DNA of 64,000 bases from an archaeon (GTDB taxonomy: Archaea; Nanobdellota; Nanobdellia; Woesearchaeales; GW2011-AR9): contig JAHFQW010000003.1 in the NCBI GenBank assembly GCA_023259115.1, forward strand, positions 46,346 through 110,345. The letters are read 5' to 3'. A program made the translations under genes and the position numbers. The notes under the pieces were generated by a model. The model was given only the letters and a program-made list of their open reading frames with translations, was not told the DNA's origin and did not search any database. Shown in pieces: positions 17,188 to 64,000 of this stretch. Numbering within the stretch: the stretch's first letter is position 1; each line of letters opens with the position of its first letter.

Positions 17188-18270
17188 TCATTTTTTCAAA
17201 AACTCTTTGACGTTCTTAAAATCGACTTTGATGATTTGAGAAAATGAAAGGGAATAGGTGGTCATTTTATTTTCTTAATTTCTTTTTTTGGAGGAAGAAA
17301 ATTTTCTCCGGTCACAACATTTTTTCCGGTCTTTTCTTCAAGTTCTATTCGTGCATTCTTAGCAATTTTGCCGCCTTTCTTGCTAGCAATAGTATTTTCT
17401 GGCATGCCTTGGGCATTCATTGTTTGTGCAATTTGCCTCGTTGATAATTCTGCAAGTGCGGTAAAAACCAGTTCTGCTTCATTCATATGATCACGAAGAT
17501 TCTGATTTTTTAGTCCTTTCAAGTCTTTATGTTCTTTAACATTAACTCCTGACCATTCTTCGTGGATGATATTAGTTAATATGGCATATTCTTCATCTTT
17601 TGTAACATCATGATCTTTCCAATAGTCTGTGAGCTTATTTCTAATCTCTTGACTCATCATTCGCTGCTGGATCCACTTCTCACTGCGTCCAAGCTTTTGC
17701 CAATTGTCTCTAGCTCTATCTAAAGATAATGATGGATCTGCTAGCTCTTTCATACGTTCATATCCCACCTTAGCAAGCCATAATTTTATAGGCTCAGCTT
17801 TGGGAGAAGGAATAGACTGAATTAGACGCAATAGAATATCTGGACTAGCCACATCTGTCTCACGCATCTTCCCATCTTGTGCGGGTAATTTCAACTGGTC
17901 ACAATTTGTGACCACTTCACTCCCTTCATTTTTTAAACGATTTTTAAGAGTAGTCCAGTAAGATTTTGCTTTATCATAATCCGTTTGTTGTGTTAAAACT
18001 GCCACAATATCAATTACGGAAAAATACCATGTTTCTGTCTTCTCATCGTAGTATCTTCTTATCTTATAATTTTCAAATATTGTTAAGTTATTTACCATCT
18101 TTACAACCTCAAAAACATAATAATTTCATGTCCAGTTATTATTGATGCTTAAAAAAGAGGTGAACATTAAAAAGATTACCTCCTTGAAAATCATAATTAT
18201 TAAAATTTTATCCCCGCTATATTCATTTTTTCAAAAACTCTTTGACGTTCTTAAAATCGACTTTGATGAA
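17188..18270. mobile_element. Putative integrated or degenerate mobile element flanked by 47-bp perfect direct repeats
   Basis: TCATTTTTTCAAAAACTCTTTGACGTTCTTAAAATCGACTTTGATGA occurs at 17188-17234 and again at 18224-18270. The second copy is the 3' coding end (…KVDFKNVKEFLKK*) of rnhC; the first is a partial duplicate of it. The only complete gene between them is dinD-like. Confidence 0.45.
17262..18098 (-). CDS. DinD-like / Bro-N (KilA-N) domain protein
   Basis: N-terminal FENYKIRRYYDEKTETWYFSVIDIVAVLT is Bro-N-like. C-terminal half aligns with E. coli DinD (KGLKNQNLRDHMNEAELVFTALAEL vs KGLKKNQKILDHMGSTELAANLFRATQ). Confidence 0.65.
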   Translation of the reverse strand: MVNNLTIFENYKIRRYYDEKTETWYFSVIDIVAVLTQQTDYDKAKSYWTTLKNRLKNEGSEVVTNCDQLKLPAQDGKMRETDVASPDILLRLIQSIPSPKAEPIKLWLAKVGYERMKELADPSLSLDRARDNWQKLGRSEKWIQQRMMSQEIRNKLTDYWKDHDVTKDEEYAILTNIIHEEWSGVNVKEHKDLKGLKNQNLRDHMNEAELVFTALAELSTRQIAQTMNAQGMPENTIASKKGGKIAKNARIELEEKTGKNVVTGENFLPPKKEIKKIK

Positions 18271-19168: not shown

Positions 19169-20236
19169 TCAATATTCGGTTAATTTCTTATTGGAATTAT
19201 AGGTAACAATTGTACTATTTCCTTCTTTGCCCGTGGTTTTTTCTGTGTTGATGAATTTGGCTTCGGTTAGTTTAAGAATACGGCGCTGGAAGCTTTTGTA
19301 ACTCAGAAGGTTGCCTTGTTCGAGGTAGTGGGTGTAGAGTTCGCCTATTTTTTGACCGCTTTTTTCACGAATGAGGTCAAGAATGTTTTTGAGATCGTCA
19401 TCAAGTGTTTCGGTGGGGTTGATATGAAATTCATCCACTTTTTTCATGGCGCCAGCAACGTGCTGCAGGGTGATTTTACGGGAGCTTTGGTCTTCCGCAA
19501 GAGAACCGGCTTCGCGCATGAGATACAAACCAATACGAACGTCTTTGAGTTCGGTGCAGCGCTCAACTATTTCTTTGAAGGCGTCATTGTCCCAGCAGTC
19601 TTGCACAAAGGCGTAGTCGCGGCGTTGTTTGAGAATGGAGGCGATTTCTGATTCGTTGTAGGGGCGAAAGATGAGAAATTCCGGAGAGAGACGGGAGCGG
19701 ATACGTTCATCTAATTCAGAATAACTATCGCGGTAGTTTGTGATTAGGAAGATAGATTTGCGATAGATGTCTTCTAAGAGGGCGTAGAGAAAATCGGTTT
19801 CTTCAAGTTTATCTACTTCGTCAAAGATGAAGACGACAGATGTTTTGTTGAGTTTGGTTTTAATTAGATCGAGAAGTTCGGTTGTGCGTTTGTTTTGCAG
19901 AAATTTGAAGCCAAGATCATCACATAATTTGGAGTAAATTTTGAAGGAGGTGTTTTCTTTCCAGCAGTTGATATAGAGAGGTGTGACATCTTGAGTGGTT
20001 TCTTCTAATTCTCGCAGAACGTGTTTACAAGCCGTGGTTTTACCAATACCAGGAGGGCCGGAAATGAAGAGATTTCTTCCGGGCAGACTTTGCAGAAGGG
20101 GTTTTATGGCAACGGCGAAGCGTTGTTGTTCGTTTTCTCGGGCGAATAAGATTTTTGGCTGGAAATCGTAGCTGAGAAAGAGGGTATCGCGAAAAAGAGA
20201 TTCACCAGATTTGAGCATATCTTTGAAGAGAGACAT
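19169..20236 (-). CDS. Orc1/Cdc6 replication initiator
   Basis: AAA+ Walker A ISGPPGIGKTTACKHVLREL; Walker B IFDEVD; C-terminal winged helix; N-terminal ...RENEQQRF typical of Cdc6. Confidence 0.85.
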   Translation of the reverse strand: MSLFKDMLKSGESLFRDTLFLSYDFQPKILFARENEQQRFAVAIKPLLQSLPGRNLFISGPPGIGKTTACKHVLRELEETTQDVTPLYINCWKENTSFKIYSKLCDDLGFKFLQNKRTTELLDLIKTKLNKTSVVFIFDEVDKLEETDFLYALLEDIYRKSIFLITNYRDSYSELDERIRSRLSPEFLIFRPYNESEIASILKQRRDYAFVQDCWDNDAFKEIVERCTELKDVRIGLYLMREAGSLAEDQSSRKITLQHVAGAMKKVDEFHINPTETLDDDLKNILDLIREKSGQKIGELYTHYLEQGNLLSYKSFQRRILKLTEAKFINTEKTTGKEGNSTIVTYNSNKKLTEY

Positions 20237-51652: not shown

Positions 51653-53407
51653 TTGCTGATGGCGTTTGATGAAAAATTACAGAGAGTATATAGGCAGAGA
51701 CGAGAGGAGGCGTGGTTGAAATCTCGTATGATTGAGGGGATACCAAGTTTGCAAGATGATTTTTCTGAAGTGAGACATTGCGTAGTTTCTTCTGAGGAAG
51801 GAATTGAGGCGTTAGTGGGAGATGCGCAAGTTATTTTGATGACGGGAGGATATTTTGGGGATGAAGCGAAAGGAAAATGGGGGAATGCGCTGGCAACAAA
51901 AGTGGACATGGTGGTGCGACCTAATTCGGGAGCAAATACGGGACGAACTATTTGTTACAAAGCAGAGAAGTTGAGTTTACATCTGGTACCAACGGGGTTG
52001 CTTGAAGGGATAAGAGCGATTATTGGATCTGAGACGGTTGGGGATCCGATTAGTTTAGATGAAGAGGAGTTGGCGTTATTTCGAGCGAGGGAAATTGATT
52101 ATAGTTTGCTGGAGGTGGGAAATTTTTTTATTACAACACCGTATCACCGCATTATGGATGTGCTGGGGAGCGCATTGAATGGTTCGACGGGAGTGGGGAT
52201 TATGCCAACGCATAAGTCTATTAAAGGAAAATCGTGTCCCAGACTAGATGATTTGTTTAATAGCTCTACTCATTTACGAAGAGTTCTTTCAAAAGATCAT
52301 GAGAATTATGAAGGCTTTTTGGAGACAAAATTATTGAATCGAGATATGGTAGTTGAGCGTCTTTTAGAAATACAACAACGAAATAGACGAATAGTGCCAG
52401 AGTATGTTTTAGAGTTTGCCAAGTCGCGTGAACCAATTGAATTTTTAAATGAGTTATACGCAGAAAGAGTAGTGAGAAATATACATTTTCCCAAACGGGT
52501 GGATGCGAGTTATGAAGTGAAGAGAGCGCTACAACGAGGAGAGCGGGTGTTATTAGAAGTGACACAGAGTTATCTCTTGAGCAATGCACGGCAACAAGGA
52601 TATCGCTATTCGACATCGGCAGATGTGACGGCGTTAGGGGCGTTGACGTCACTGGGGATTTCTCCGATGCGCTATTCTACGCGGGTGATTAATGTGAATA
52701 AGTTTCCTGGAGCGTCACGAGTGGGACCGGGAGATATTCCAGGTTCTTTTGTGGCACAAAATCATTTTGCGGAGAATAAGATTACGTCACTGAGCGAGTT
52801 AGGAGAGGCTTGTGTTGATTTTAATGCGATTTGTCAGATGTATTTTAGTGCGATTGGGAAGAATGGGATTTTGCAACCGGTTACCTATACAGATGCAACG
52901 GGAACGTATGAAATTGGAGAAGCGATGGCGATTGCCAATGCGCGTACGTTTGATGAGAGAGGAGCAACAACGGGCAAGCCACGGATTACGGGTTTATTTG
53001 ATTGTGTGTTGGGCAGACTCGTGGCAGAGGAACAAGGACCGTATACGGTTATTTCTTGCATGGATAGAGGAAATGTGTGTGACAAAGTGGGATTGGTGGT
53101 AGGGTATGTGGTGTCGTTACCAGAAGAGGTTGAGAGGATTGATTGTAATGGAATGATGTATACAACGGGCAAAGTGATTGTGCCTGGAGATCAAGTACCA
53201 ACAAGTGATGTACTGCAGTATTGTGTGCCAATTATTAAAGTGATGGAAGGTTGGAAGAGCACGCCACTTGGGAATTTGCATCCAGGAGAAGAGCTGCCTT
53301 TGGCAGTTTCTAGTGTTATTGGGGCAATTGAGAAATATACGGGATTTTTGGTTATGGCAATTGGAACGGGACCGGAAACCAATGAGGCGTTGTATTTGAA
53401 GCGGTAA
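51653..53407 (+). CDS. Adenylosuccinate-synthetase-like protein (divergent PurA family, 584 aa)
   Basis: GDEAKGKW (vs GDEGKGK); SGANTGRT in place of GGHNAGHT; NGSTGVGIMPTH (vs IGTTGRGIGPAY); GATTGKPRITGLFD (vs GATTGRRRRTGWLD); IGTGPETNE (vs ISTGPDRTE). Has an N-terminal extension and internal insertions. Confidence 0.55.
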   Translation: MLMAFDEKLQRVYRQRREEAWLKSRMIEGIPSLQDDFSEVRHCVVSSEEGIEALVGDAQVILMTGGYFGDEAKGKWGNALATKVDMVVRPNSGANTGRTICYKAEKLSLHLVPTGLLEGIRAIIGSETVGDPISLDEEELALFRAREIDYSLLEVGNFFITTPYHRIMDVLGSALNGSTGVGIMPTHKSIKGKSCPRLDDLFNSSTHLRRVLSKDHENYEGFLETKLLNRDMVVERLLEIQQRNRRIVPEYVLEFAKSREPIEFLNELYAERVVRNIHFPKRVDASYEVKRALQRGERVLLEVTQSYLLSNARQQGYRYSTSADVTALGALTSLGISPMRYSTRVINVNKFPGASRVGPGDIPGSFVAQNHFAENKITSLSELGEACVDFNAICQMYFSAIGKNGILQPVTYTDATGTYEIGEAMAIANARTFDERGATTGKPRITGLFDCVLGRLVAEEQGPYTVISCMDRGNVCDKVGLVVGYVVSLPEEVERIDCNGMMYTTGKVIVPGDQVPTSDVLQYCVPIIKVMEGWKSTPLGNLHPGEELPLAVSSVIGAIEKYTGFLVMAIGTGPETNEALYLKR

Positions 53408-54684: not shown

Positions 54685-55491
54685 ATGTGGGTTTACAATC
54701 TTGATCCGGTGCTTGTGCACTTAGGGCCAGTTGAAATACGATGGTATGGGTTAGTGTATGTGGCGGGGTTCTTTTTTGCAGTCTGGTGGTTGCATTATAT
54801 GGCGAAAAGAGGGCAAGTTGAGTTGAGCTCGGATGATATTTGGGATATGTTGTTTTATTTGATGATAGGGGTATTGATCGGTTCGCGGTTGTTTGAGGTG
54901 TTTTGGGAGCCGAGTTATTATTTGAGCAATCCGCTGCGATTTTTGAAGATTTGGGAAGGAGGGATGAGTTTTCATGGAGGATTTGTGGGGATTATTACGG
55001 CAACAGGGTGGTATTGTCGGAAGAAGAAGATGAATTTTTGGAAGATTGCGGATGCGATGAGTTTTCCAACTCTGTTGGCGTTGGCATTGGGACGGGTGGC
55101 AAATTTTGTTAATGGTGAATTAGTAGGACGAGTGTGGGGTGGTTCTTGGTGTGTGGTGTTTCCAGATTATGATATGCAATGTCGACATCCATCCATTTTA
55201 TATGCGGCGGGGCAGAGATTAGTTGTTGCGGTGTGGCTGGCATGGTTGACGGTGCGTTGGGAGTTTAGGGCAGGATTTATTTTTTGGAATTTTGTTTTGC
55301 TGGAAGGAATGGGTAGATTTATTATTGATTTTTGGCGAGAGGATACGTTGTATTATGGGTTTACGATGGGGCAGATATTTAGTGCGATGATGGTTGTTGT
55401 GGCGGTGTGGATGTTGGTTTTGAGGCATCGAGGGGATGTGAAGCGGTTGTTTTTGAATAGGAAAGAGCTTGAGAGATTAGAAGAAGCCTGA
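54685..55491 (+). CDS. lgt: Prolipoprotein diacylglyceryl transferase (bacterial Lgt)
   Basis: LGPVEIRWYGLVYVAGFFFAVWW (cf. IGPVALHWYGLMYLVGF); WEGGMSFHGG (identical to the E. coli WDGGMSFHGG core); GRVANFVNGELVGR; HPSILYAA (cf. HPSQLYE). Confidence 0.8.
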   Translation: MWVYNLDPVLVHLGPVEIRWYGLVYVAGFFFAVWWLHYMAKRGQVELSSDDIWDMLFYLMIGVLIGSRLFEVFWEPSYYLSNPLRFLKIWEGGMSFHGGFVGIITATGWYCRKKKMNFWKIADAMSFPTLLALALGRVANFVNGELVGRVWGGSWCVVFPDYDMQCRHPSILYAAGQRLVVAVWLAWLTVRWEFRAGFIFWNFVLLEGMGRFIIDFWREDTLYYGFTMGQIFSAMMVVVAVWMLVLRHRGDVKRLFLNRKELERLEEA

Positions 55492-55579: not shown

Positions 55580-57397
55580 TTGAGCATGGTTGATTTGGCA
55601 GGATTGATTGCATCTTACAACGGATTGGATTATGTGTATAGCGCAAAACCGGGAAAGTATACTTTTGTAGCGCCGAGTTCTTTTACAGAAAATGGTCTGA
55701 GGCAGAGAGGGGGGAGAGTTGTAGTTATAGAACAGGGAGAGAATTGTATTACTTCTCTGGTTATGGATAATGGGCATGGTTCAGCGATTATTACACCAAA
55801 TAATAAGGGGCAGACGTATATGGTATTGAGGTATGTACCTTATATTGTGAATATTGTTGAAAAAAAAGGAAAAAATGCGTCTTTACAAGAATGTAAAATA
55901 ATTCCCACAACGCTCTATGATGTGGAATTAGTCAAAGTGATAAGTGATGTAGGGGTTTTTGAAGAGCGGTGTGAAAAAGAGTTTGAACAGTGTACCTTTG
56001 CCGCGATGCGAAGTGGTTTTTTATCACAGTTATTATTACCTAAAACGAAGACAGCAACACTTTCAAGAAAAGTGGATCTGAATTCATTAGATTTGTTGAT
56101 GCAAGAAGCTCGGCGATATAAACTCTTAGATCATGAGCTGGAATTTATTGTTGGCCAACGGCGAGATTATGTGAAAAGAATGATGGACACAGCGCTGGCA
56201 AATTTAGTTTTTTTGCAAAAAGATACACCCCATTTTACGCAATTATGGGCAGATGTGAGAAGAGTATTAAGAGAAATACCTCTTCCTACGACACCAGATG
56301 AAATGAGGGAAGTTGAGAAGTATTACAAACCAGAAGTGAGACGCTATTTTGATCTAAAAGGAGCTACTTTTTTTACTGATGTGAAAGAGCATCGCTACAT
56401 TTTGAATTTATTTCTAGCATCAGAAGGCAGAGATATGAAGAGATTTGGTTCATTACAGTGGCAAGAAGAGGTGTATGGAGAGATAATACCATCGGTGCAA
56501 CACTATGTGGATAGCCAAAAAGCGATGTTTGAAGGGGGGGGAAAAACTCTCCCTGCAATACTCTTAGAGCAAACAAGATTATTAGATGTTTATCATCGCG
56601 CTAAAACACAATATCAAGAAATGATTAATCTTTTTGTAGCGCATAATATTCGTTTAGTGTTTAACCGAGCATTGCCGTTCATTAAGAAAGGAAAAGATAC
56701 GACGGAAGCAATGGCCAATGGCATGGTTGGCTTACGCAAGGCGGCGATGAAATATAAATGGGAGCGAGGGTATAAATTTTCAACCTATGCGGCGTGGTGG
56801 ATCAGACAAAATATTGATCGAGAAGATATGGATACAGGGGAGACGATTCGCAAGCCGGTGCATCTGCGTACGTTCTTAGATAAGTTGCATTATGTACAAG
56901 GAAGATTTTGGCAACAGCAATGCCGATATCCTACTTTGGAGGAATTAGCAGAAATAGTTGATGCGCCTGTACGCAGGATCAAACGGGCGTTAGAGAGTCC
57001 GGGTGAATGCCGATCACTCTATGATAAAGTGGGTGATCTAGATGATCGAGATGGAGCATCAGTTATTGATTTTATTGATGGAAGTGATGCAGAGCAGTTG
57101 AGAGGATTTGTACATGTGCCTTTAGATGTACATACGGCGGCTGAGGGAAGTAATATGGGTTTAAAAGTGCACCAGATGTTAATATTATTAACCCCTAGAG
57201 AGGAATCTGTGATACGCTATCGTTTCGGGATTGGTGTAGAAGAGAAGACACTTGAAGAGGTGGGACAGATGATGGGGCTTACGCGGGAGCGGATTAGACA
57301 AATTGAGATGATCGTAATTAAAAAATTAGGTAGGCGATTGGAGAGTAGAGGTATTACGGCGGATTATTTGGATAGAGAGAGGAATAAAGAGACTTGA
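55580..57397 (+). CDS. Sigma-70-family (primary-like) sigma factor with an approximately 350-aa N-terminal extension of unknown nature
   Basis: Region 2: NIRLVFNRALPFIKKGKDTTEAMANGMVGLRKAAMKYKWERGYKFSTYAAWWIRQNI (RGYKFSTYA[T/A]WWIRQ is the group 1/2 sigma hallmark). Region 3 start: IRKPVHL. Region 4.2: LLTPREESVIRYRFGIGVEEKTLEEVGQMMGLTRERIRQIEMIVIKKL. Confidence 0.75.
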   Translation: MSMVDLAGLIASYNGLDYVYSAKPGKYTFVAPSSFTENGLRQRGGRVVVIEQGENCITSLVMDNGHGSAIITPNNKGQTYMVLRYVPYIVNIVEKKGKNASLQECKIIPTTLYDVELVKVISDVGVFEERCEKEFEQCTFAAMRSGFLSQLLLPKTKTATLSRKVDLNSLDLLMQEARRYKLLDHELEFIVGQRRDYVKRMMDTALANLVFLQKDTPHFTQLWADVRRVLREIPLPTTPDEMREVEKYYKPEVRRYFDLKGATFFTDVKEHRYILNLFLASEGRDMKRFGSLQWQEEVYGEIIPSVQHYVDSQKAMFEGGGKTLPAILLEQTRLLDVYHRAKTQYQEMINLFVAHNIRLVFNRALPFIKKGKDTTEAMANGMVGLRKAAMKYKWERGYKFSTYAAWWIRQNIDREDMDTGETIRKPVHLRTFLDKLHYVQGRFWQQQCRYPTLEELAEIVDAPVRRIKRALESPGECRSLYDKVGDLDDRDGASVIDFIDGSDAEQLRGFVHVPLDVHTAAEGSNMGLKVHQMLILLTPREESVIRYRFGIGVEEKTLEEVGQMMGLTRERIRQIEMIVIKKLGRRLESRGITADYLDRERNKET

Positions 57398-62839: not shown

Positions 62840-63001
62840 ATGGCAAAATGCAATATCTGTGGGAATAAGTTGAAAGAATTATTTTTAGAGAAAGTGAAGG
62901 GAGGGGTGGTGTATAAGCCGGGTTCTTCAAAGCAATATATGGTGTGTTTTGAGTGTCAGAAGAAGTTTAGTTCTAAAGAAGAGATAATTGAGAGGTTGTA
63001 A
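62840..63001 (+). CDS. Small zinc-ribbon protein (53 aa; absent from the ORF track)
   Basis: Hand translation: MAKCNICGNKLKELFLEKVKGGVVYKPGSSKQYMVCFECQKKFSSKEEIIERL. Contains CxxC...CxxC. Confidence 0.35.
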   Translation: MAKCNICGNKLKELFLEKVKGGVVYKPGSSKQYMVCFECQKKFSSKEEIIERL

Positions 63002-63014
63002 TTATTGTACAAAA

Positions 63015-63698
63015 ATGGTGTCAGAAAAAGAATTATTATTGCAACGTGTTGGGAGAGATACATTATTTAGACAATCACCAGGCACAACACATAAAGAGGT
63101 ATTGATGGCAATGAGTAAAGTAGACCGAGCATGCTTTCTGCGGGGAAAAGAGTTGGCGCGCGCGTATTGGGATGTTCCTCGTTCTATAGGTTTTGAGCAA
63201 ACGTGTTCGCAACCCTCCACGCTTGCGACGCTATTACAGTTGCTAGATATTCATCCTGGTCAGCGGATTTTGGAGATTGGCACAGGATGCGGCTATGCGG
63301 CAACGATTGCGGCAGAAATGGCGGGGGAGCAGGGGTATGTTGTGAGTGTTGAGCGTATTTTGGATTTGGTGAAATTAGCGCAAGAAAATGCCTTCCACTA
63401 TTTTGGAGCAGAGTGGAAACAGAGAATGGATATAGTGTATGAGGATGGGAGTAGAGGAGGGAAGAGAAATGAGAAATATGATAGGATTTTCTTTTCGGCG
63501 GGAACAGAACAAGATTTTGATTTGAGTCCGTTTGAACAATTGCTGCAAAAAGAGGCAGGTGTAATAGTTGCGGTGCACTCTGGAGATGTATATCATTTAG
63601 GGCCAATGAGGAAATATGTGTATGTGAAAGAGAAGTTGCAGGAGAGCATAGATTATGGAAGGTTTTGTTTTGTGGGATTGAGAGAAAACACGATTTAA
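63015..63698 (+). CDS. pcm: Protein-L-isoaspartate O-methyltransferase
   Basis: SAM-binding motif I ILEIGTGCGYAATIAAEM; post-I and motif II spacing typical of PIMT. Start trimmed to MVSEKELL. Confidence 0.75.
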   Translation: MVSEKELLLQRVGRDTLFRQSPGTTHKEVLMAMSKVDRACFLRGKELARAYWDVPRSIGFEQTCSQPSTLATLLQLLDIHPGQRILEIGTGCGYAATIAAEMAGEQGYVVSVERILDLVKLAQENAFHYFGAEWKQRMDIVYEDGSRGGKRNEKYDRIFFSAGTEQDFDLSPFEQLLQKEAGVIVAVHSGDVYHLGPMRKYVYVKEKLQESIDYGRFCFVGLRENTI

Positions 63699-63771
63699 TT
63701 GGGAAGGGTAGAATGTTGAATAATCAAGTAGAATGATTTAAAAAGAAATTCTGAATTTTCTAGTGTTAGAT

Positions 63772-63912
63772 GCCCTTGTAGCTTAGTGGTGGAGCGGCGG
63801 TTTCGTATGCCTTGCTAAAATGTGCTGAATGAACCGCAGGCCGTGGGTTCAAATATACTTGTCATGTCTCTTAGGTTGGATGTGATGAGAGTTGAGAGTC
63901 CCACCAAGGGCT
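63772..63912 (+). tRNA. tRNA-Thr (anticodon CGU) with two introns: canonical 37/38 and a non-canonical T-arm intron
   Basis: Acceptor GCCCTTG / CAAGGGC (63772-78 / 63905-11). D-arm GCTT-AGTGGTG-GAGC. Anticodon stem GCGGT / ACCGC with loop TTCGTA (anticodon CGT). 24-nt intron TGCCTTGCTAAAATGTGCTGAATG. Variable loop AGGCC. T-stem GTGGG, T-loop TTCAAAT, then a 45-nt insertion before CCCAC. Discriminator T; CCA not encoded. Confidence 0.65.
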
Positions 63913-64000
63913 TATTTTTATTTTCTTTGGTAGAGGATAGAAATGTTCTTAAATAGGCTATTGTTTTTAATGAAAATGGCTAAACAGACGGATTTACCAA

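Follow-up and report, generated by a model that had tools for sequence, protein, structure and literature searches.

A Woesearchaeota tRNA-Thr(CGU) gene with two probable bulge-helix-bulge introns, one of them in the T-loop

The question raised by this locus is whether 141 nucleotides of archaeal DNA in which standard tools find no tRNA are in fact a working tRNA gene that can be recognized once two introns have been taken out. The original prediction had proposed a tRNA-Thr(CGU) of this kind, with a 24-nt intron at the canonical 37/38 site and a 45-nt insertion in the T-arm, and had named an ARAGORN search among its checks. On the raw window (the whole 64-kb stretch of DNA that was analysed), ARAGORN called no tRNA with or without intron mode, and Rfam reported none either at the gathering threshold or at E<=5; Rfam on a 400-nt region alone, at a permissive E-value, gave a partial tRNA match of 19.7 bits covering 63772-63849. 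After in-silico removal of 24 nt following A37 and of 45 nt from the T-loop, ARAGORN identified the remaining 72-mer as tRNA-Thr(cgt). When the T-loop insert alone was removed, its intron mode returned Thr(cgt) and placed an intron of 24 nt behind gene position 36, written i(36,24), which corresponds to 37/38 and agrees with the predicted first intron. The ARAGORN check was thus negative on the raw DNA and positive on the spliced sequence. We consider it very likely that the locus is a functional tRNA-Thr(CGU) gene of a member of the Woesearchaeota (DPANN), from whose transcript two bulge-helix-bulge introns are removed to give a tRNA of 75 nt. The locus is 100% identical in two other independent assemblies (Logan L001 and L002), and the presence of the same sequence in three independent assemblies rules out an assembly artefact.

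The gene occupies positions 63772-63912 on the plus strand (141 nt) and comprises three exons that are colinear and follow one another in uninterrupted order; the two flanking elements in the following list were recognized by reading the sequence.

63737-63744, plus strand: TTTAAAAA, a putative archaeal TATA box at -35 to -28 from the mature 5' end
63772-63807, plus strand: exon 1, with the acceptor 5' strand, the D-arm, the 5' strand of the anticodon stem and the anticodon loop up to A37; the anticodon CGT lies within it at 63804-63806
63808-63831, plus strand: intron 1, 24 nt, at the canonical 37/38 site
63832-63853, plus strand: exon 2, with position 38, the 3' strand of the anticodon stem, the variable loop, the 5' strand of the T-stem and the T-loop up to A59
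63854-63898, plus strand: intron 2, 45 nt, in the T-loop at 59/60
63899-63912, plus strand: exon 3, with U60, the T-stem 3' strand CCCAC, the acceptor 3' strand CAAGGGC and the discriminator U73
63913-63924, plus strand: T-rich trailer TATTTTTATTTT, with T-runs at 63915-63924

Exon 1 is supported by ARAGORN on the spliced sequence, by the partial Rfam match and by covariation (see below). Splicing would create the junctions ...UUCGUA/AACCGC... between exons 1 and 2 and ...GGUUCAAA/UCCCAC... between exons 2 and 3. The product has an acceptor stem of 7 bp, a D-stem of 4 bp, an anticodon stem of 5 bp and a T-stem of 5 bp, and it carries the conserved tRNA nucleotides U8, A14, G18 G19, U33, G53-C61, T54 U55 C56 and A58 with a T-loop of UUCAAAU. 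The mature RNA is predicted to measure 72 nt, or 75 nt with the CCA that is absent from the gene, and not the 76 nt that had been expected.

A bulge-helix-bulge structure at each junction had been named as a further check, and a motif scan found the strict form (hBHBh') at both introns, in each case with a 4-bp central helix, two 3-nt bulges, a 5-bp outer helix and a 2-bp inner helix. For intron 1, the anticodon stem serves as outer helix and U32 U33 C34 G35 pair with UGAA of the intron; the bulges are U36 A37/U and UG/A38 (the slash marks the junction), and the inner helix consists of 2 bp (GC/GC). For intron 2, the outer helix is the T-stem and U54 U55 C56 A57 pair with UGAG of the intron, the bulges are A58 A59/U and AG/U60, and the inner side continues with 2 bp, one mismatch and then a 12-bp hairpin; the fold of T-arm and intron 2 together has a z-score of -3.0. 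The second insertion had originally been placed between the T-loop and the 3' strand of the T-stem, and while it does lie in the T-arm, its site is 59/60, inside the loop. With a T on both flanks of intron 2, placement at 59/60 or at 60/61 yields one and the same mature RNA, and it is the bulge-helix-bulge geometry that assigns the intron to 59/60.

How much weight these motifs deserve depends on how easily they arise. A loose scan (4-bp helix, flanks of at least 2 bp) found 11 motif-like arrangements within the 141-nt gene, so that loose motifs are common and a motif carries weight only through its agreement with the boundaries at which splicing restores the cloverleaf. Just two of the 11 have an outer helix of 5 bp, and these are the pair found at those boundaries. 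If each intron is shuffled with its boundaries held fixed, the strict motif arises by chance in 0.56% of cases for intron 1 and 0.73% for intron 2, or jointly in about 4e-5. The motif register is not recovered when the minimum-energy fold is computed with a nearest-neighbour model: the conformer with cloverleaf and both motifs was calculated at -40.8 kcal/mol versus -49.4 kcal/mol for the minimum (8.6 kcal/mol above it), which pairs UUC with the overlapping GAG, one register off. This counts against the two-intron reading, although energy models of this type generally penalise bulged motifs that are stabilised by protein.

The archaeal origin of the DNA, which had also been predicted, is borne out by the gene content of the window. 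It encodes a family B DNA polymerase (PolB), Orc1/Cdc6, aIF2-alpha, TrmB and ABCE1, and the named proteins that match its ABCE1 best, with 70-79% identity, come almost exclusively from MAGs of Candidatus Woesearchaeota or Nanoarchaeota; archaeal marker genes and Woesearchaeota ABCE1 matches together show that the host is archaeal and belongs to DPANN. Its GC content is about 40%. The 64-kb window contains one tRNA gene only and neither an EndA nor an RtcB gene.

Other properties of the window were recorded alongside. Its GC skew is strong and of one sign, at +0.305 over positions 1-64000 and +0.2 to +0.43 in every gene on either strand, so that minus-strand genes have C-rich coding strands, and there is no switch at the Orc1/Cdc6 gene (19169-20236); among the relatives introduced below, L105 (positions 1-20899) has a skew of -0.27 in the opposite orientation and the others are much milder. 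A bacterial-type prolipoprotein diacylglyceryl transferase (Lgt) is encoded on the plus strand at 54685-55491 (Pfam E = 1e-66) and adjoins a cupredoxin gene, an arrangement conserved in the syntenic Woesearchaeota relatives with listed gene content (L057 is outside this set). Between the two genes, the window carries a 605-aa open reading frame with Pfam sigma-70 regions 2, 3 and 4 (55580-57397, plus strand), and no sigma-70-like gene is present at this position in L105, L109, L110, L111, L113 or L114. The adenylosuccinate synthetase (51653-53407, plus strand) is 584 aa long versus 437-454 aa in L105, L109 and L110 and 607 aa in L111; its Pfam match spans residues 64-578 against a profile of 416 positions, which amounts to about 100 extra residues. 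A Bro-N domain protein, of a kind common in viruses and mobile elements, is encoded on the minus strand at 17262-18098, and one is also found in L111.

Just upstream of the tRNA lies a gene for a protein-L-isoaspartate methyltransferase (PCMT; 62988-63698, plus strand). In a collection of 5.8 billion proteins, it has no homologue above 39% identity besides itself, and its closest named matches are bacterial; homologues this distant made it unusable for fetching relatives, and ABCE1 was used instead. ABCE1 homologues and one DNA-pattern scan together brought in ten further loci. A genome scan with a 20-mer taken from the D-arm and the anticodon arm mainly picked up unrelated Thr(CGU) genes of Methanomassiliicoccales, Chloroflexota and Acidobacteriota, with only L057 and L064 being useful, and a metagenome scan for T-loop-intron orthologues with the pattern ACCGCAGGCCRTGGGTTCAAATD gave a single unrelated match in a coding region. 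The local gene order Lgt - cupredoxin - ABCE1 - ... - tRNA-Thr(CGU) is common to nine of the ten further loci, the tenth being L057, which came from the DNA-pattern scan and stands outside this comparison. One of the nine, L064 (CAYIBV010000018.1), bears the title "uncultured Methanosarcinales archaeon"; it matches the Woesearchaeota loci both in ABCE1 sequence and in the order of its genes (Lgt, cupredoxin, ABCE1, two-intron tRNA-Thr), and its label or binning is probably wrong. The tRNA genes of the eleven loci are built as follows.

Window: 37/38 intron of 24 nt; T-loop insert of 45 nt
L105: 37/38 intron of 42 nt; T-loop insert of 65 nt at the same site
L064: 37/38 intron of 58 nt; T-loop insert of 48 nt at the same site
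L057: 37/38 intron of 15 nt; no T-loop insert
L107: 37/38 intron of 38 nt; no T-loop insert
L110: 37/38 intron of 20 nt; no T-loop insert
L111: 37/38 intron of 23 nt; no T-loop insert
L112: 37/38 intron of 43 nt; no T-loop insert
L113: 37/38 intron of 14 nt; no T-loop insert
L114: 37/38 intron of 14 nt; no T-loop insert
L109: 37/38 intron of 22 nt; gene broken in the T-loop and left out of the alignment

All ten intact orthologues, the window gene included, thus have a 37/38 intron (14-58 nt), while a T-loop intron is found in three and a plain 7-nt T-loop in the other seven. L105 is the sister of the window in a neighbour-joining tree of ABCE1 (78.7% identity), and L064 is more distant (68%). 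By eye, the three T-loop introns have no evident sequence similarity to one another, except that all three keep a UGA(G/C) segment just 5' of the 3' junction that pairs with U55 C56 A57 (and U54). The motifs of L105 and L064 are relaxed, with three of the four central pairs formed or a 3' bulge of 5 nt.

When the ten genes are spliced and aligned, with exon boundaries chosen by the analyst, the cloverleaf is 99.5% paired and 11 of its 21 pairs have changed on both sides; none of 500 shuffles was as good, and controls in which the alignment was slid were 30-55% paired. The T-stem pair 50:64 is U-A in the window, A-U in L105 and U-G in L064, so that its changes compensate among the very genes that carry a T-loop intron, from which we conclude that selection maintains the stem across this intron. 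Together with the strict motifs at both junctions and the result of in-silico splicing, this covariation upholds the proposed tRNA-Thr(CGU) with two introns.

The broken orthologue bears on whether the window gene might itself be dead. In L109 (7965-8375, minus strand relative to the locus), tRNA-Thr(CGU) is cut off after GTTCAAG in the T-loop by an insert of about 410 nt that contains two small opposite-strand open reading frames of 55 and 53 aa, and a search across the 21.8-kb L109 locus did not find the 3' end of the tRNA; in L110, a near-identical relative (ABCE1 96.8% identical), the gene is intact. The L109 locus may represent a pseudogene, a split tRNA or a scar left behind by an integrated element, and it demonstrates that the gene can be hit at the T-loop site. 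By analogy, the window could hold a one-intron tRNA-Thr(CGU) gene that was inactivated by a 45-nt T-loop insertion never removed from the RNA, and its loss might be tolerated if tRNA-Thr(UGU) were able to read the ACG codon and made the gene dispensable. We regard this as improbable. The insert of the window gene builds a strict bulge-helix-bulge motif whose register agrees with the T-stem, the exons on both sides are intact, and the T-stem has undergone a compensatory change relative to L105; moreover, inserts of diverged sequence occupy one and the same nucleotide position in three lineages. The flanks of the gene are intact as well. The upstream element (TTTAAAAA, TTTTAAATA or TTTTATAAATA) recurs at equal distance in 7 of the 11 orthologous loci, and from its sequence we take it to be a putative archaeal TATA box. 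Archaeal transcription ends at oligo-T stretches, and by analogy with this general rule the T-rich trailer is likely to be a termination signal.

Even less probable, in our estimation, is that the 37/38 intron alone is spliced and that the T-loop insert stays in the RNA as an additional hairpin of an expanded, non-standard tRNA. Its stable 12-bp hairpin and the minimum-energy fold without motif register would fit such a molecule. What has been conserved speaks for removal, however: the UGA(G/C) of the central helix is retained in all three insert-bearing genes and the hairpin is not, and the other seven orthologues do with a plain 7-nt T-loop. A retained insert would also conflict with the conserved T-loop, in which T54, U55, C56 and A58 are all present; in general tRNA structure, an insert between A59 and U60 would disturb this loop and its contact with G18 G19 of the D-loop. 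A chance resemblance or an assembly chimera without any tRNA gene, as the silence of standard tools on the raw window might suggest, is refuted by the textbook cloverleaf of the spliced sequence, the covariation of ten orthologues and the identity of three independent assemblies.

Some other identities of the gene or its inserts were considered and rejected. Split or permuted tRNA genes of the Nanoarchaeum or Caldivirga type, whose exons lie at separate loci or in permuted order and are united by a bulge-helix-bulge motif that arises in trans or after circularisation, do not match a locus with all exons contiguous and ordered within 141 nt. Group I and group II introns have a self-splicing ribozyme core of hundreds of nucleotides, while the inserts measure only 24 and 45 nt, and Rfam matched no intron to them, whether its gathering threshold or a permissive E-value was applied. 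A guide RNA of the C/D box type, as in the intron of euryarchaeal tRNA-Trp, was dismissed for lack of an Rfam match and of boxes in the required order (C, D', C' and D within one intron): by reading the sequence, intron 2 has GUGAUGA without a downstream CUGA, and intron 1 has CUGA without a C box. Finally, the 9-mer ATGTG-TGA shared by both introns (8 of 9 positions identical) is at chance level by a rough estimate and no sign of intron duplication.

For a functional two-intron gene, the anatomy, motifs, conservation with covariation and archaeal host observed here can be combined with established archaeal tRNA biology (reviewed in PMC4090602 and PMC4033280), from which we infer expression, cleavage, ligation and end processing. 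A single precursor of about 141 nt plus leader and trailer would be transcribed, probably from a start downstream of the TATA box that lies around 30 nt upstream, and would end at the oligo-T stretch. Each intron would then pair with the adjoining exon loop into a bulge-helix-bulge motif, and the two motifs would stack on the stems next to them, the anticodon stem for intron 1 and the T-stem for intron 2. EndA would be expected to cut in the bulges after A37 and after nucleotide 24 of intron 1, and after A59 and after nucleotide 45 of intron 2, and the ligation of the three exons would fall to an RtcB-type enzyme. After end trimming by RNase P and RNase Z, the tRNA would reach its 75 nt through the CCA-adding enzyme.

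The original prediction had also seen in this gene a hint at a splicing endonuclease of relaxed specificity. Both motifs of the window gene are strict, and for this gene alone such an enzyme is not required. The relaxed motifs of L105 and L064 make it plausible for the lineage, and the type of endonuclease is not deducible from the tRNA. This coexistence of strict motifs in one lineage with relaxed ones in others bears on the substrate breadth that a DPANN splicing endonuclease needs.

The history of the T-loop intron invites a more speculative idea. The T-loop and 3' end of tRNA genes are a classic target of integrating elements, and an intron-less version of the gene, that of L109, was destroyed by an insert of about 410 nt exactly at the site of the T-loop intron. 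The 59/60 intron might conceivably be young, lineage-restricted and possibly mobile within the Woesearchaeales, and persist by masking the T-loop and 3' end from such elements, though we rate this scenario as unlikely. Its distribution (the window, its sister L105 and the more distant L064, with absence from seven other relatives) would fit a lineage restriction. No intron sequence was seen copied into other tRNA genes, but this observation comes from a window with a single tRNA gene. If the idea were true, the locus would offer a natural comparative system for a tRNA disruption that protects against integration. Irrespective of it, the eleven loci (ten intact ones and the broken L109) illustrate, on a small and clean scale, how a non-canonical intron can be present in some Woesearchaeota and absent from their relatives.

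The main value of the locus lies in annotation. Without an ARAGORN or Rfam tRNA in the 64-kb window, automatic annotation would make the genome appear to be devoid of tRNA-Thr(CGU), and apparent gaps of this sort have been noted for DPANN genomes (PMC5829648). In the survey by Kaneta et al. 2018 (PMC5829648), disrupted tRNA genes are described as frequent in DPANN, incomplete tRNA sets are taken to point to undetected disrupted genes and manual curation is urged, a call that a gene invisible to ARAGORN and Rfam matches well. The same survey attributes to endonuclease subunit type the smallest contribution to substrate range, and reports alpha4 EndAs with an L3 loop in the DPANN lineages rich in disrupted tRNA genes, connecting these enzymes with a rise in tRNA gene disruption. 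The gene described here resembles the disrupted DPANN tRNA genes of that work and of ARMAN-2 (Fujishima et al. 2011, PMC3239211) in belonging to the same superphylum and in having non-canonical and multiple introns. The survey, which includes one Woesearchaeota genome (RBG_13_36_6), differs from the present single-gene analysis in that its text gives proportions and not individual genes.

As had been predicted, archaeal tRNA genes with multiple introns at non-canonical sites are well precedented: position 59/60 is listed among the known archaeal non-canonical intron sites (PMC4090602), and genes with multiple introns are described above all from Thermoproteales and also from other Crenarchaeota (Sugahara et al. 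2007, 2008, cited in PMC4090602 and PMC4033280). Like those genes, as these reviews present them, the window gene combines a 37/38 intron with a non-canonical one, both bounded by bulge-helix-bulge motifs between colinear exons. It differs from them in its host, a DPANN archaeon with a GC content of about 40% and not a hyperthermophilic crenarchaeote, and in that both of its motifs are strict and not relaxed. A close parallel for the isoacceptor is Aeropyrum pernix (Hirata et al. [quoted passage not shown] Unlike the window gene, the A. pernix Thr genes have one intron each, and the non-standard one sits in the D-loop of Thr(UGU). Seen against these systems, the two-intron tRNA-Thr(CGU) gene adds to the multiple-intron archaeal tRNA genes already described and leaves the known mechanism of intron removal unchanged.
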